Shown: positions 58,849-64,000, numbered from the stretch's first letter. The stretch is DNA of 64,000 nucleotides from Alphaproteobacteria bacterium (GCA_050175015.1 JBFXJJ010000002.1:96001-160000), one strand, 5' to 3'. Notes: generated by a model not told the origin, from the sequence alone. Translations and numbers: made by a program.

Positions 58849-59874
58849 ATGAAAAAAGAAGTATTTGCTCCATCATTAAAAACCAGCCTTAACCGCCCTT
58901 CTGTTCAACAGGAAGAGCACAATCTTATAAGCGGTGCTGCTAAAAATTATCCAAGACTACGGCTAAAAAAAGACAGCCTTGATTCTTTGGTAAAACTTAT
59001 TGGCGAATTAGAAAAATCGGAAAGAGGGCGGAATTTGTTAACCGCCGCTGAAAAAAGTGATGCTTGGATTGGCTTCAGCCATAATATGGCAGCTCAGGGA
59101 AGCTATTGTGAAAAACAAAACAGGATTATGCTTAATTCTTCAATTAATAGCGATAAAATGGTTGTTACTTTAGCTCACGAGCTCCGTCATGCCGAACAGT
59201 TTAACACAACGGTCGATATAAGCCCGTCTACAGATACCTCAAAAACCTATTTAATGGGACAGTTTGCAATTGAAGCTGACGCTAATGCCCATTCAACATT
59301 AGTTGCGTGGGAATTAAAACAGCTTGGTAACGAAAAACCTTTTGAGGAATTTAAAAAAGAATCTCCTCATATTGTTAATCCTTTTGAAGAGAAGATAAAC
59401 GCCGGCGATACTTTAGGAGCTTTAGATGCCGCCTTTAACGGCTGGTACACTAATATGAATATTAGAAGAGCTTACGAAAAGAATTATACTGGTATGCTTG
59501 ATCAAGAAGGAGTTCGTTTTTCTAAAAGTCCTGATGCTATGGCTAGGGAAATATCTCCCGCCGATACTATAAATCGAACCTGTGTTTATAATAACAGTAA
59601 TTATTTTAAGAGTAATCCTGATATTTTAGAGGATAAAGAACACTTAAGTTTAGGGCACGAAACTTGGTGGTCATGCTGGCGGACATATCGTGATCTTGCT
59701 AATCGCAAAGATTACACCTCCTCTTCAGAAGTAGCTAATCAGAAAATGACAGACATTCCCCGCCGTGAAAACAGTGATTATTATTATGAAATTTCTCCTG
59801 AGCAGGCGAAAAATGCAGCCAAGCCGTCATTCAGCCTTTTGATAAATAAGCTTATGAGACAAAAAGGCAAATAA
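58849..59874 (+). CDS. Putative zinc metallopeptidase (HExxH; DUF6782-like)
   Basis: VVTLAHELRHAEQ and downstream AIEADANA third-ligand motif; no signal peptide; basic C-terminus. Confidence 0.75.
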   Translation: MKKEVFAPSLKTSLNRPSVQQEEHNLISGAAKNYPRLRLKKDSLDSLVKLIGELEKSERGRNLLTAAEKSDAWIGFSHNMAAQGSYCEKQNRIMLNSSINSDKMVVTLAHELRHAEQFNTTVDISPSTDTSKTYLMGQFAIEADANAHSTLVAWELKQLGNEKPFEEFKKESPHIVNPFEEKINAGDTLGALDAAFNGWYTNMNIRRAYEKNYTGMLDQEGVRFSKSPDAMAREISPADTINRTCVYNNSNYFKSNPDILEDKEHLSLGHETWWSCWRTYRDLANRKDYTSSSEVANQKMTDIPRRENSDYYYEISPEQAKNAAKPSFSLLINKLMRQKGK

Positions 59875-60104
59875 GACCGTTAGAAAAAACATTTTTTTAA
59901 ACTTCTGGCATTTTGGTTTAACTAGGCTTTTTTATTTTTTCCTCTTTACCAATCTTAAAACTATGCTCTAAAGTGTCGTTATTAATTTTGCCTAATTGCA
60001 GCTCTTAATAAACATTTTTTACTTTTATCAAAAGTAAAATCAATTTTTTTAAAAATACAAAAGTTTCTATATGAACGAACATTGTCCTAGAAATACCCTC
60101 CTAT

Positions 60105-60119
60105 GTTCTTTTTTTGTTC
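60105..60119. promoter_or_regulatory. Alphaproteobacterial LexA (SOS) box
   Basis: GTTC-TTTTTTT-GTTC, an exact GTTC-N7-GTTC, immediately adjacent to a -35 element. Confidence 0.72.
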
Positions 60120-60149
60120 TTGACAACTGAACTTTTTATGTGATATAAA
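60120..60149 (+). promoter_or_regulatory. Sigma-70 promoter for the paralogue array
   Basis: TTGACA (60120-60125), 18 bp, then TATAAA (60144-60149) with an extended TG. Confidence 0.7.
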
Positions 60150-60248
60150 ATCTGTCAGGTTCAGTAACTCTTAGTGTGCCTTTTTTATATGACGTATTAG
60201 AAATAGACAGTTATAGTTTGAAGAAAGGTGTTTTTAAGGATTTTAGTT

Positions 60249-60767
60249 ATGAAAAGATTCGTTTTTTTTATTATGTTTGTTTTTTGCTTGTTTACGGGTT
60301 CGAGTGTCAGGGCAGAATATTGCTGGATGATTGGCTGTGAAGGTGCTGTCGGCTATGTTTTTTTAACGGAACCTCAGCAGTGGAGTGAGCCTAAGACCAG
60401 CATCGTTTTTAATGGCAAAGAATATAAAATATTTAATCCAGAACACACTTTTTTATTTACTAAATCAGGACTGCCTAAAATTGGTGAAGAAGTAGAACTT
60501 AACATTGGCACCCCTATCTATGAAGAAGATGAAATTATCGAACGAAGCGATATGTTCAAAAAGTTCAAGTCGGGCTTAAACGAAAATCCAGAAGAATATG
60601 GACCTAGTGATGACATATGTCTTACTTGGCCGAGTGGTTATGATGGAGAGTATCCTATGGCAGGCGGAACTATTTTAAAAATCTTAGGATATAAGACGTT
60701 TAGCTTTGATAATGAAGATTTTCTTTTTGCAAAAGTAAAAATTCTAAAAGATGGCGGAACAGATTAA
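60249..60767 (+). CDS. Secreted/periplasmic protein, paralogue 1 (candidate immunity protein)
   Basis: ATG 60249 with AAGGA RBS; Sec signal peptide ending SVRA; mature EYCWMIGCEG... Confidence 0.85.
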   Translation: MKRFVFFIMFVFCLFTGSSVRAEYCWMIGCEGAVGYVFLTEPQQWSEPKTSIVFNGKEYKIFNPEHTFLFTKSGLPKIGEEVELNIGTPIYEEDEIIERSDMFKKFKSGLNENPEEYGPSDDICLTWPSGYDGEYPMAGGTILKILGYKTFSFDNEDFLFAKVKILKDGGTD

Positions 60768-60848
60768 TTTTTTTAACCTTTATCTTTTTTATAAAGGTTT
60801 TTAGCTGTTAGGTTAACTTAAAAAGAATAGATTTTAAGGATTTTAGTT

Positions 60849-61364
60849 ATGAAGAGATTGTTTTTTTTAATTGTTTTGAGTTTTTGCTTGTTTACGGGTT
60901 CGATTGCCAGAGCAGAATATTGCTGGATGATTGGTTGTGAAGGTGCTGTCGGCTATGTTTTTTTAACGGAACCTCAGCAGTGGAGTGAGCCTAAGACCAG
61001 CGTCGTTTTTAATGGCAAAGAATATAAAATATTTAATCCAGAAGACACTTTTTTATTCACTAAACCAGGACTGCCTAAAATTGGTGAAGAAGTAGAACTT
61101 AATGTTGGCACCCCTATCTATGAAGAAGATGAGATTATCGAACGAAGCGATATGTTCAAAAAGTTTAAATCGGGCTTAAACGAAAATCCAGAAGAATATG
61201 GACCTAGTGATGATATTTGTTTTGACTGGCCGAGTGATTACGATGGAGAGTATCCTATGGCAGGCGGAACTATTTTAAAAATCTTAGGATATAAGACGTT
61301 TAGCTTTGATAATGAAGACTTTCTTTTTGCAAAAGTAAAAATTATTAAAGATGGAATAAGATAA
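60849..61364 (+). CDS. Secreted/periplasmic protein, paralogue 2 (candidate immunity protein)
   Basis: Near-identical to paralogues 1 and 3; signal peptide ending IARA. Confidence 0.85.
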   Translation: MKRLFFLIVLSFCLFTGSIARAEYCWMIGCEGAVGYVFLTEPQQWSEPKTSVVFNGKEYKIFNPEDTFLFTKPGLPKIGEEVELNVGTPIYEEDEIIERSDMFKKFKSGLNENPEEYGPSDDICFDWPSDYDGEYPMAGGTILKILGYKTFSFDNEDFLFAKVKIIKDGIR

Positions 61365-61445
61365 ATTTTTTAACCTTTATTTTTTTTATAAAGGTTTTTA
61401 GCTGTTAGGTTAACTTAAAAAGAATAGGTTTTAAGGATTTTAGTT

Positions 61446-61961
61446 ATGAAAAGATTGTTTTTTTTAATTGTTTTGAGTTTTTGCTTGTTTACGGGTTCGA
61501 GTGTCAGGGCAGAATATTGCTGGATGATTGGCTGTGAAGGTGCTGTCGGCTATGTTTTTTTAACGGAACCTCAGCAGTGGAGTGAGCCTAAGACCAGCGT
61601 CGTTTTTAATGGCAAAGAATATAAAATATCAAGTCCTGATGATGTATTTTTATTTACTAAACCAGGATTGCCTAAAATTGACGAAGAAGTAGAACTTAAC
61701 ATTGGCACCCCTATCTATGAAGAAGATGAGATTATCGAACGAAGCGATATGTTCAAAAAGTTCAAATCAGGTCTAAAAGAGCCATATATTGGGGTAGAAG
61801 ATGTCTGGAAAATTAGTCTTACTTGGCCGAGTGATTATGATGGAGATTATCCTATGGCAGGCGGAACTATTTTAAAAATCTTAGGATATAAGACGTTTAG
61901 CTTTGATAATGAAGACTTTCTTTTTGCAAAAGTAAAAATTATTAAAGATGGAATAAGATAA
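61446..61961 (+). CDS. Secreted/periplasmic protein, paralogue 3 (candidate immunity protein)
   Basis: Near-identical to paralogues 1 and 2 except two divergent blocks (SSPDDV; KEPYIGVEDVWKIS). Confidence 0.85.
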   Translation: MKRLFFLIVLSFCLFTGSSVRAEYCWMIGCEGAVGYVFLTEPQQWSEPKTSVVFNGKEYKISSPDDVFLFTKPGLPKIDEEVELNIGTPIYEEDEIIERSDMFKKFKSGLKEPYIGVEDVWKISLTWPSDYDGDYPMAGGTILKILGYKTFSFDNEDFLFAKVKIIKDGIR

Positions 61962-62001
61962 ATTTTTTAACCTTTATTTTTTTTATAAAGGTTTTTAGCT
62001 G

Positions 62002-62036
62002 GCGGCAAAGATTTTTTAGTCTTTGCCGCTTTTTTT
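62002..62036 (+). terminator. 28-bp palindrome, copy 1; intrinsic terminator-like, between the array and the 564-aa gene
   Basis: GCGGCAAAGA-TTTTTTAG-TCTTTGCCGC followed by T7. Confidence 0.8.
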
Positions 62037-62065
62037 ATTTATTAAATTTTAAGGAGAATATAATT

Positions 62066-63760
62066 ATGAATAATTTGCGAACTAACGATGTTCTTTCAAA
62101 AAGACTTAAAAAAACAACCGATAAAATAGAACAAGATAAAGACTTGATTATCAAAGCCGTCGGAAAGAATGAAGATGAAAGCGGGAAAAAAACCTACCAA
62201 ATATCACACGCAGGAACTTCAAAAAGCAGTTTTTCCGTCGGTCGTCTGCAAACAGATTTTGCTGGAGACGATAAAGAAATAACCAGAGATGATTTTATAA
62301 AAAACATAAATAATATAAATAGAAATCTTTTTAATGATGGAAAAATAACCAACGATGGGCTTTTAACCTCAGACGATATTAACCAAATAAAAGAAGGGCT
62401 AGTAATCAAAGGCAACGTAAATGCTATTTCAAAGTCCGTAAAAAACAAAATTAATACGGCTTTGCAGTCAAAAGAAGGTCAAGAGATTGTTAACAAGTTA
62501 GACAAGCAGCAAGTTAACAATCTTTTAGTCGGTGTCAAAAAAACTCGTGATGCAGCATTGTCCAACCCCGATATTGCTAATAATCCAGCCTCTGCAGCTT
62601 ATGTTAATTCTGATGCTTTTATGCTTCGAATTGCTGATAATATTAACCAATATGGCTCAAATGGTCGCATGTGTGATTGGCTTAAAGGTGATAAAACTTA
62701 CATTGATAAGAAAACTAACAAGGAAAAACCTTTTGGAAACCCAATTTCAAAAGATGTTACTATTTCAGGAGATGTTCTTAAAAAATATACCGATAATTAT
62801 AAATATGCAAAGGAGCATACAAAAAACTATAATAAGCGAATTGATAATCTTGATACGGTATTAAAAGAACAAAAAGATAATCCTGCAAAAAAACAAAACA
62901 ATGAAGCTGATTTTAAACAACCAAGCGTTTTTTCAGGTTCTAAAGATATTGCAAAAAACATCGATAGCAATCTTTCTAATCCAATTGATTTTGATAAGAT
63001 TAAAACAAAACAAGATGCTATTGCTGAAACCCTTGGAACTGATGCCGCAAACGCAGGTCAGAATAACAATACAGATAACACCAGACAAGGCGATGAGACC
63101 GTTGCTTCAAACAGTTTTCTGTCTAAAGATACCGCAGCAGGTAATTTTAAAAACGGCAAAAACAATGCCAATGATATTCTTGAGAAGTTAAGCAAAAATG
63201 TCGATATTTCCTCTATAATATTAGCAAAAAGACCAGAAGAGATGACTAAAGAAGAAATGAGAGAAGCGCAAAATTTTGTTTTTGATAAAGTTTTTCACCC
63301 CAAAAGATTAGAGGTTGATGATCATATTAAAAAATATTTTGGCGTCCGCTATCCAGGAAAAACCGAATATGATGATACGGGAAGAATGATTGACACACCG
63401 TCTGTTATTAATGAACCTTTAGAACCAAGCCAGATTAAGGATAAACAAGGAAAGCCTGTAGAGCATGGACTTAAAGGCATTGCGGGATTAATCGATAATG
63501 CTGATGGAATAACGGGAGGAAAAGGCGTTGAGGTATTGCAAAAAGCCTTAAATTATCTAGGTCGTTCTTTTGGTGTTAACGATTATGATGTTCCAGATAA
63601 AATCTATCTAAGAGAACCCGTTAAAACGCTAAAAGAAGATAATATCTTGGGACCTAAAACGGCAACCGCAACTTTTGACAATCTTGTTAAAAACGGTGCT
63701 AATAATTTAACAAATGCCTTTAACAGCATTTTAAAAAAACAAAAAGACGACCTTTATTAA
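62066..63760 (+). CDS. Putative peptidoglycan-targeting toxin/hydrolase: lysozyme-like N-terminal domain and C-terminal peptidoglycan-binding domain
   Basis: AAGGAG RBS; no signal peptide. N-terminal AVGKNE...YQISHAG...SSFSVGRLQTD...ADNINQYG. C-terminal GVEVLQKALNYLG...LKEDNILGPKTATA fits the PG_binding_1 pattern. Confidence 0.65.
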   Translation: MNNLRTNDVLSKRLKKTTDKIEQDKDLIIKAVGKNEDESGKKTYQISHAGTSKSSFSVGRLQTDFAGDDKEITRDDFIKNINNINRNLFNDGKITNDGLLTSDDINQIKEGLVIKGNVNAISKSVKNKINTALQSKEGQEIVNKLDKQQVNNLLVGVKKTRDAALSNPDIANNPASAAYVNSDAFMLRIADNINQYGSNGRMCDWLKGDKTYIDKKTNKEKPFGNPISKDVTISGDVLKKYTDNYKYAKEHTKNYNKRIDNLDTVLKEQKDNPAKKQNNEADFKQPSVFSGSKDIAKNIDSNLSNPIDFDKIKTKQDAIAETLGTDAANAGQNNNTDNTRQGDETVASNSFLSKDTAAGNFKNGKNNANDILEKLSKNVDISSIILAKRPEEMTKEEMREAQNFVFDKVFHPKRLEVDDHIKKYFGVRYPGKTEYDDTGRMIDTPSVINEPLEPSQIKDKQGKPVEHGLKGIAGLIDNADGITGGKGVEVLQKALNYLGRSFGVNDYDVPDKIYLREPVKTLKEDNILGPKTATATFDNLVKNGANNLTNAFNSILKKQKDDLY

Positions 63761-63798
63761 TTTATAGTATTTTGCTTATGTTCAAATTTTAAACAATA

Positions 63799-63826
63799 GC
63801 GGCAAAGATTTTTTAGTCTTTGCCGC
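63799..63826 (+). repeat. 28-bp palindrome, copy 2, identical to 62002-62029
   Basis: GCGGCAAAGATTTTTTAGTCTTTGCCGC, 38 bp after the stop codon; lacks the long T tail. Confidence 0.92.
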
Positions 63827-64000
63827 TTCCCTGTTTATTTAACTTTATGGCGGGCAACACTTAAAACAAGGTTTACTTTAAAATGTTGTCTCTTATTTTG
63901 CCTTACGGCAAATGTCTGCCGATGCGCTTTGCTTTTAGCAAAAGCAAAAGTAAAACTTTTTTAAAAAAATAGCTAAATATCAATCAATTTAACCAACGGC

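Follow-up and report, generated by a model that had tools for sequence, protein, structure and literature searches.

Close to the 3' end of the 64,000-nt window analysed here (G000:C2:96001–160000; G000 is the genome under study, 2.53 Mb and 99.4% complete, and coordinates given without a contig are window positions) lies a plus-strand operon that, judged from its sequence, is laid out like a peptidoglycan-hydrolase effector with its immunity proteins. Its toxin, immunity and C-terminal families are unnamed, and an alphaproteobacterial LexA box precedes it. Our preferred reading, to which we assign a probability of roughly 55%, is that LexA represses expression of a peptidoglycan-hydrolase toxin acting in the periplasm, B, and of the exported proteins that protect against it, S1–S3. 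The LexA box (60105–60119) is followed by a putative sigma-70 promoter (60120–60149), the open reading frame (ORF) of S1 (60249–60767, 172 aa from the ATG, the ORF tool having placed the start at the GTG at 60228), the paralogous ORFs S2 (60849–61364) and S3 (61446–61961) of 171 aa each, a GC-rich hairpin (62001–62030), the ORF of B (62066–63760, 564 aa, two domains, signal-less), and a second copy of the hairpin (63798–63827, no strand assigned). All of these elements had been pointed out in a first-pass annotation and all are present where it placed them, the promoter by reading only.

Searches of Pfam, NCBIfam and PDB sequences returned no match for S1, S2, S3 or B. For B in particular, no Pfam family was reached at E ≤ 1, no NCBIfam family was found and no PDB sequence matched with the family profile, and the protein does not belong by sequence to Phage_lysozyme, Glyco_hydro_46, T6SS_VgrG3-like_C (PF21277) or the pesticin family. 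PHROGs gave weak matches for the locus, none better than E 0.0018 (a family of unknown function). A word-indexed protein search with B found only B itself and one paralogue, and an exhaustive HMMER search of 1.84 billion representatives yielded 73 proteins at E ≤ 1e-3. Since these matches fall on two distinct regions (34 on aa 25–275 and 38 on aa 340–560), B consists of two separable modules, the N-terminal of which is rare, with its 34 matches in the entire set. The AlphaFold model of B, built from a 72-sequence alignment, has a confidence (predicted local distance difference test, pLDDT) of 83.9, with values above 90 for aa 20–275 (the N-domain, 62123–62890) and 366–564 (the C-domain, 63161–63757). 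Between the two domains lies a low-complexity, disordered linker (aa 276–365, 62891–63160), for which pLDDT falls below 50 at aa 279–307 and 323–363.

Foldseek found nothing in the PDB at E ≤ 1e-3 for B or S2. An exhaustive structural aligner consistently placed the N-domain in the lysozyme superfamily, with many T4, P22, and other phage lysozymes as well as MltE and MltC among the matches. The predicted model resembles GH46 chitosanases, pesticin, VgrG3, and T4 lysozyme, and contains the N-terminal helix, small beta-hairpin lobe, helical lobe, and cleft of the superfamily fold. Neighbours of the N-domain in the ESM Atlas include clusters partly annotated as T6SS_VgrG3-like_C (12–25% of members), and structural neighbours with template-modelling (TM) scores of 0.70–0.72 are the N-terminal parts of proteins with XVIPCD and PG_binding_1 domains.

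The motif of the domain reads NE(36)...Y-x-I-S-H-A-G-T-x-x-S-x-F-S-x-G-x-x-Q-x-D(64). In an alignment of 31 sequences, A49, S54, G59, Q62, and D64 are invariant, and E36 (≥90%), G55, S57, G138, N194, and Q195 are nearly so. E36 stands at the end of the first long helix of the model (6–36) and D64 after the small beta-hairpin (strands 56–64), which is the usual site of the acid/base pair in the lysozyme superfamily. When 401 genomes of the phylum were searched by profile, G684 proved to encode a 513-aa protein with PG_binding_1 and XVIPCD domains (E 4.5e-28); hhalign relates it to the N-domain of B alone (probability 96.3%, E 1.9e-9) and pairs E38, not E36. The candidate catalytic residues are therefore best given as Glu36, possibly Glu38, and Asp64. 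The fold matches and the conserved Glu and Asp bear out the earlier description of the large protein as lysozyme-like, and the predicted activity is that of a glycosidase. By eye, B has no hydrophobic N-terminus or signal peptide; the toxin family likewise lacks Sec signals, the N-domain match beginning within the first 30 residues in 30 of the 34 proteins.

The C-domain begins with a conserved region without known function (approximately aa 366–460) and appears to end in a PG_binding_3-like fold. A match to PG_binding_3 or PG_binding_1 was found in 27 of the 37 C-domain homologues scanned, which, with the output of the structural aligner, supports the predicted peptidoglycan binding proposed at the outset; four N-domain homologues carry LysM. 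A search for the same C-terminus behind other N-termini, as had been suggested, yielded four further ORFs in G000 with unrelated N-termini, one of them interrupted by a stop codon, so that a minimum of five polymorphic G000 proteins share the module of aa 366–564. Two of these paralogous ORFs are directly followed by a gene for a membrane-anchored ankyrin-repeat-like protein. The paralogues, on contigs C8 (L003 1285–3108) and C1 (L004 1315–3062), measure 281 and 249 aa; the proteins encoded 33 and 17 nt further 3' have 314 or 326 aa, transmembrane segments, and ankyrin-like repeats recognized by eye. To judge from their sequences, these genes and their neighbours look like further toxin/immunity-like pairs with the same C-module. 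Relatives of the N-domain, in turn, are fused to XVIPCD, to PT-HINT and RTX repeats, to LysM or to a Mu-F domain, or lie within a 2514-aa repeat protein; RTX repeats occur in those of G123, P0066, and P0070. Given such varied delivery modules, the N-domain is cargo of several delivery systems.

The small proteins encoded upstream of B are close paralogues, S1 and S3 being 91 and 87% identical to S2, and the DNA repeats across the three genes with a period of 597–600 nt. Each begins with MKR, continues with a hydrophobic stretch, and has (V/A)RA, a site of the A-x-A type, before EYCW; we predict, by eye, a Sec signal cleaved by signal peptidase I after (V/A)RA. A lipoprotein reading was rejected, as Phe precedes the Cys of the signal peptide and the homologues in a second genome, G055, have no Cys at this place. 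The conserved pair Cys25/Cys30 probably forms a disulfide in the periplasm. The core of the paralogues (codons 23–110) is under purifying selection, as the nonsynonymous rate (dN 0.02–0.05) is well below the synonymous rate (dS 0.13–0.29). S3 differs by a replaced patch at aa 111–126 and a smaller one at aa 62–67; for the larger patch dN reaches 0.54–0.60 (measured in codons 111–136), compared with 0.04–0.05 for S3 in codons 23–110, and it is modelled as a loop with lower confidence. The predicted model of S2 has a pLDDT of 80.1. A complex prediction for aa 18–278 of B with mature S2 scored 0.00, the fold of S2 itself being uncertain, and counts neither way. From sequence and gene context, S1–S3 are probably periplasmic immunity proteins against B.

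This assignment draws on the genomic context of the toxin domain in other genomes. At all seven assessable loci, from six genomes (G000, G055 C142, G055 C122, G017, G123, G642, and G684), a same-strand gene for a protein with a signal peptide is the next one upstream; a third B gene of G055, on C172, starts 161 nt from the contig end and was left out of the count. These partners belong to four unrelated families. G017 and G123 encode ~300-aa proteins, homologous to each other (E 4e-9), whose stop codons are overlapped by the N-domain gene; hhalign finds no relation between the G123 protein and S (probability 0.2%). The partner in G642 has 201 aa, and that in G684 belongs to the LprI 'lysozyme inhibitor' family (E 1.9e-12). 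The presence of an upstream exported partner at every assessable locus, drawn from unrelated families, is the pattern that marks cognate immunity against toxins acting in the periplasm.

Among 60 relatives, only G055, a member of the same class but of another family, encodes homologues of S as well as of B. Its S proteins are 44–46% identical to those of G000 and are encoded directly upstream of the B homologues, in one copy on C142 and in two on C122, where a truncated B fragment lies between them; two types of B pair with two types of S. The claim of exported small proteins upstream of the toxin is thus upheld by co-occurrence and synteny in a second genome. The fragment on C122 (L013 1260–1412, minus strand) has 51 codons and a start identical to that of the B homologue, and after it the promoter and LexA box occur again, which indicates that the promoter–S–B unit was duplicated with truncation. 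On C142 (L011 326–2280, minus strand) the B homologue occupies two ORFs of 396 and 255 aa with a 4-nt overlap, the second consisting of LysM and the C-domain; a frameshift would explain this, as would a true split of the gene.

The hairpin between S3 and B forms 13 pairs and is followed by the T-run TTTTTTTATTT; with a fold z of -4.8, it is terminator-like and likely an attenuating terminator. The copy downstream of B (z = -4.6) is identical over 28 nt, and this 28-mer occurs only twice in the genome. A hairpin with a U-run, of different stem sequence, occupies the same place between the last S gene and B on both G055 contigs (z = -5.6 on C142 and -2.9 on C122). The AAGGAG Shine-Dalgarno sequence and the ATG of B follow within 35 nt of the hairpin in G000, so closely that no promoter would fit between the hairpin and the ribosome-binding site of B; hence B would be made by read-through only, and the S proteins would be in excess over it.

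The LexA box, GTTCTTTTTTTGTTC, read directly from the sequence, is a perfect match to GTTC-N7-GTTC (here GTTC-T7-GTTC) and abuts the -35 hexamer of the putative promoter TTGACA-N15-TG-N-TATAAA. In this promoter, TTGACA (60120–60125) and the extended -10 element TG-a-TATAAA (60141–60149) are separated by a spacer of 18 nt. GTTC-N7-GTTC is quoted as the alphaproteobacterial LexA motif (PMC8565304). In G000, lexA and recA are each preceded by the same motif, at distances of 49 and 94 nt, respectively, and nine copies lie wholly outside crude ORF calls, compared with 3.65 ± 2.0 in composition-preserving shuffles, of which 4 out of 200 reached nine. In G055, GTTCCTTTTATGTTC is found between TTGACT and the start codon at all three S genes; the motif occurs 25 times in this genome of 2.3 Mb, with one copy each at its own lexA and recA. 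The weight of the box comes from the lexA and recA sites, the intergenic excess, and the conservation in G055, the motif alone being no more frequent than chance. On these sequence grounds, functional LexA control of the locus is probable. None of the other C-domain paralogues of G000 is preceded by a perfect box; one site with a single mismatch lies 20 nt before the paralogue on C8. Contigs C7 (L017 1-1399) and C235 (L039 1-269) of G055 carry another LexA box, GTTCTTTTTATGTTC, 5' of a signal-less protein with an N-terminus that appears peptidoglycan-binding-like by eye. The C7 protein, apparently split by a change of frame, ends in a GH24-type lysozyme motif, also recognized by eye, and with the proteins preceded by this box G055 would have SOS-boxed cell-wall hydrolases of a second kind.

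We suggest that the operon would work as follows. In an undamaged cell, LexA would sit on GTTC-N7-GTTC beside the -35 hexamer and keep transcription low, and DNA damage would derepress the operon. The S genes would be transcribed first and their products sent to the periplasm via Sec, where the Cys25/Cys30 disulfide would probably form. The hairpin would pass a fraction of the transcripts, leaving S in excess over B. The N-domain of B would act as a glycosidase of the lysozyme superfamily and the C-domain would bind peptidoglycan; being signal-less, B would meet peptidoglycan only once outside the cytoplasm of the producer. The S proteins would inhibit B in kin cells and in the producer, and the divergent loop of S3 may cover a non-self variant of the toxin. 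Cis-protection of the producer would be an equally good role for the S proteins.

A number of observations weigh against this reading. A consensus promoter scan, whose rule requires T at the last position of the -10 element, did not call the S1 promoter, and its yield (17 promoter-like sites) was close to that in shuffles (16.6), for which reasons the promoter is a direct reading only. In G000 as a whole GTTC-N7-GTTC occurs 36 times, compared with ~56 expected from base composition. The three S copies of G055 are recent duplicates and the loci of G000 and G055 may share ancestry or transfer, so that the conserved box amounts to two observations rather than four; moreover, its position differs, being 5' of the -35 hexamer in G000 and within the spacer in G055, and the promoter sequence around it has diverged. 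As the N-domain loci of G017 and G123 have no LexA box, not all of the toxin family is under SOS control; the proposal of LexA control put forward in the first-pass annotation is thus supported at this locus and its G055 counterparts, not family-wide. All signal peptides, including those of the other loci, were judged by eye. B has no recognizable receptor-binding or translocation domain, and the operon has no lysis gene. Finally, G328 has a homologue of S (hhalign probability 98.9%) whose gene is next to ispG and has no B-like neighbour. This 158-aa protein with a signal peptide (C57, L053 1492–1968, minus strand) is encoded between ispG-like and CoA-transferase-like genes, with no LexA box, and a profile search of G328 for the N-domain gave no match; the gene could be an immunity orphan or could hint at a more general inhibitor role.

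The export route is the part of the proposal on which the evidence is most evenly divided. A search of G000 for TssC/VipB (PF05943) gave no match, its control being positive in E. coli, and a route through a type VI secretion system (T6SS) is therefore unlikely. The best-surviving alternative keeps the same toxin/immunity pair and has B delivered, by contact or active secretion, through a system that reads C-terminal features, i.e., a type IV secretion system (T4SS), as for the X-Tfe effectors of Xanthomonas, or a type I secretion system, with SOS merely modulating the level. Several findings are consistent with it: the order of an N-terminal toxin and a conserved C-terminal module fits substrates with C-terminal signals, the C-domain recurs on the four other ORFs with differing N-termini, relatives of the N-domain carry XVIPCD (G684) or RTX repeats, and G000 encodes a VirB4-family ATPase and three ORFs resembling T4 coupling proteins, VirB4 being present in G055 as well. 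However, the sole VirB4-family ORF of G000 lies beside TcpQ and secretin genes, outside any VirB operon, and G017 (assembly 93% complete) has the C-domain form of the toxin with no VirB4 match. B itself contains neither RTX repeats nor, according to Pfam, XVIPCD (PF20410), and none was found for XVIPCD in G000, in a search whose positive controls also gave no match; the similarity to the X-Tfe-like protein of G684 is confined to the N-domain. On balance, we regard delivery by a secretion system as unlikely, albeit to be taken seriously.

For the LexA-repressed toxin operon, we lean slightly toward release of B from SOS-damaged or lysing cells, in the manner of pesticin and colicin M, over a secretion system, because LexA is the only shared regulatory feature and because a prophage-like cluster lies nearby. 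The cluster (G000:C2:163471–176189, minus strand) begins ~3.5 kb beyond the window end and ~3.7 kb 3' of the locus, from which three non-phage ORFs separate it. Its ORFs, to judge from their N-terminal sequences, resemble genes for terminase, portal, capsid and tail proteins, a holin-like protein, a 136-aa T4-type (GH24) lysozyme, and a SleB-like hydrolase, and it might supply the lysis for the release of B. The operon itself has no additional ORF between B and the convergent downstream gene, and hence no lysis gene or holin of its own.

A second alternative is that B is self-directed, i.e., an SOS-induced autolysin or cell-wall remodeller (for instance, in altruistic lysis releasing phage, DNA, or toxins), and that the S proteins are periplasmic regulators or inhibitors that set its threshold and do not serve as immunity against competitors. 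LexA control would suit such a role, as would the lack of a signal, since endolysins likewise await membrane damage; the neighbouring cluster offers holin-like and GH24 genes, and G055 has the boxed signal-less protein with a peptidoglycan-binding-like N-terminus and GH24-type motif described above. Yet the toxin domain is elsewhere fused to modules characteristic of exported polymorphic toxins (XVIPCD, PT-HINT with RTX, the 2514-aa repeat protein), and the upstream partner switches family between loci and is duplicated and diversified, which is typical of immunity genes and not of housekeeping regulators. With the operon devoid of a holin, we consider this explanation improbable. That the locus is what remains of a phage module for lysis or superinfection, with a LexA box left over from phage-type regulation and S proteins that are phage periplasmic proteins unrelated to the activity of B, is very improbable: mostly viral clusters do occur among the feature neighbours that the ESM Atlas gives for the N-domain (of the members with taxa, 74% and 100% are Uroviricota), one N-domain homologue carries Phage_Mu_F, one C-domain homologue carries Phage_lysozyme, and the prophage-like cluster is near, but the operon is flanked by core genes and set apart from the phage-like genes by the three non-phage ORFs, the PHROGs matches are weak, no relative came up when viral contigs were scanned with the single protein, and in the short contigs of G055 the S-to-B unit is seen without phage genes.

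The proposed LexA-repressed toxin/immunity operon combines features of several known systems. Colicin operons (e.g., those of colicin M and Cmi) have a LexA-boxed promoter for the toxin and an immunity gene, and an internal terminator between immunity and lysis genes tunes downstream expression. The locus shares the boxed promoter and the internal terminator with them, but it has immunity-first order and no lysis gene, and its box is of the direct-repeat type of Alphaproteobacteria, unlike the palindrome of E. coli; B has a glycosidase fold, whereas colicin M is a lipid-II phosphatase.

Pesticin is under SOS control and, like the present operon, comes without a lysis gene. As described for Yersinia pestis, a signal-less toxin with a T4-lysozyme-like domain is encoded alongside a small immunity protein, Pim, that is periplasmic (PMC3390615). 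The pesticin active site is reported as Glu-178 with Thr-201 and Asp-207 (PMC3390615), a Glu/Asp logic that the sequence of B appears to share. In contrast, the two toxins have no sequence similarity, and their domain order differs: pesticin has N-terminal translocation and receptor domains and a C-terminal enzyme, whereas the toxin domain of B starts at about residue 20 and its predicted peptidoglycan-binding module is C-terminal. B also has no recognizable TonB box or receptor domain. The S candidates, unlike Pim, are upstream and triplicated, with a terminator before the toxin, and the locus is chromosomal, pesticin being plasmid-borne.

The pair X-Tfe(XAC2609)/X-Tfi(XAC2610) of Xanthomonas likewise consists of a signal-less lysozyme-like effector and a periplasmic immunity protein, the latter giving cis-protection to the producer (PMC10933484). 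B follows the same order of toxin, predicted peptidoglycan-binding part, and conserved C-terminal module, and its N-domain is related by profile to the XVIPCD protein of G684 and by structure to the ESM Atlas proteins with XVIPCD. The adjacent signal-peptide genes, three of them upstream of B, are a likeness of layout only, and in place of XVIPCD the C-module of B is another, unnamed conserved region with a PG_binding_3-like end. To our knowledge, and with no search aimed at the point, LexA control has not been described as a feature of X-Tfe effectors. VgrG3/TsiV3 of Vibrio cholerae, a T6SS pair, differs in that G000 has no T6SS sheath gene, and B neither matches PF21277 nor is fused to VgrG. 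Of the effector analogies drawn in the first-pass annotation, the one to X-Tfe thus finds backing in the profile match and in LprI upstream of the G684 relative, although B lacks XVIPCD, whereas a T6SS route is unlikely with no TssC found.

Peptidoglycan-hydrolase toxins with periplasmic immunity and LexA-controlled colicins are each well known. A literature search (LexA, bacteriocin, peptidoglycan hydrolase, immunity) did not find their combination under an alphaproteobacterial-type SOS regulon in the titles and opening parts of abstracts that it covered. A bolder proposal is that the operon represents a class of bacteriocin so far undescribed, alphaproteobacterial and independent of secretion systems, with a LexA-derepressed, signal-less lysozyme-fold toxin issuing from damaged cells, aa 366–564 acting as a new device for cell entry and wall targeting, S1–S3 representing a new immunity fold that cross-protects against non-self toxin variants, and the attenuator setting the stoichiometry; we hold this extended version to be rather doubtful. 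The analysis defines three unnamed families, namely, a lysozyme-fold toxin domain, a small exported partner without known fold, and a C-terminal module reused on toxin-like proteins. The toxin domain, swapped among XVIPCD, RTX/PT-HINT and the C-module of B, is a useful marker for finding delivery modules, and the conserved immunity–terminator–toxin layout is a testable design for an excess of immunity over toxin.

Upstream of the locus lie core ORFs that resemble infB, rbfA, truB, and pnp by their N-terminal sequences, followed by an NMO-family gene and a DUF6782 gene. The latter, directly 5' of the locus (58849–59874, plus strand), encodes a 341-aa putative metallopeptidase (E 1.9e-56) with HExxH and no obvious signal peptide, and an AT-only palindrome (60016–60038) lies 3' of it. 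On the other side, the B gene is convergent with a minus-strand gene, and a membrane-protein gene and metabolic genes are found downstream. Elsewhere in the genome (G000:C1:299190–299215), a divergent rRNA-methyltransferase-like gene is separated by two overlapping GTTC-N7-GTTC boxes from the gene for a 176-aa protein that, by its sequence, is an apparent exported thermonuclease and possibly another SOS-controlled secreted enzyme.

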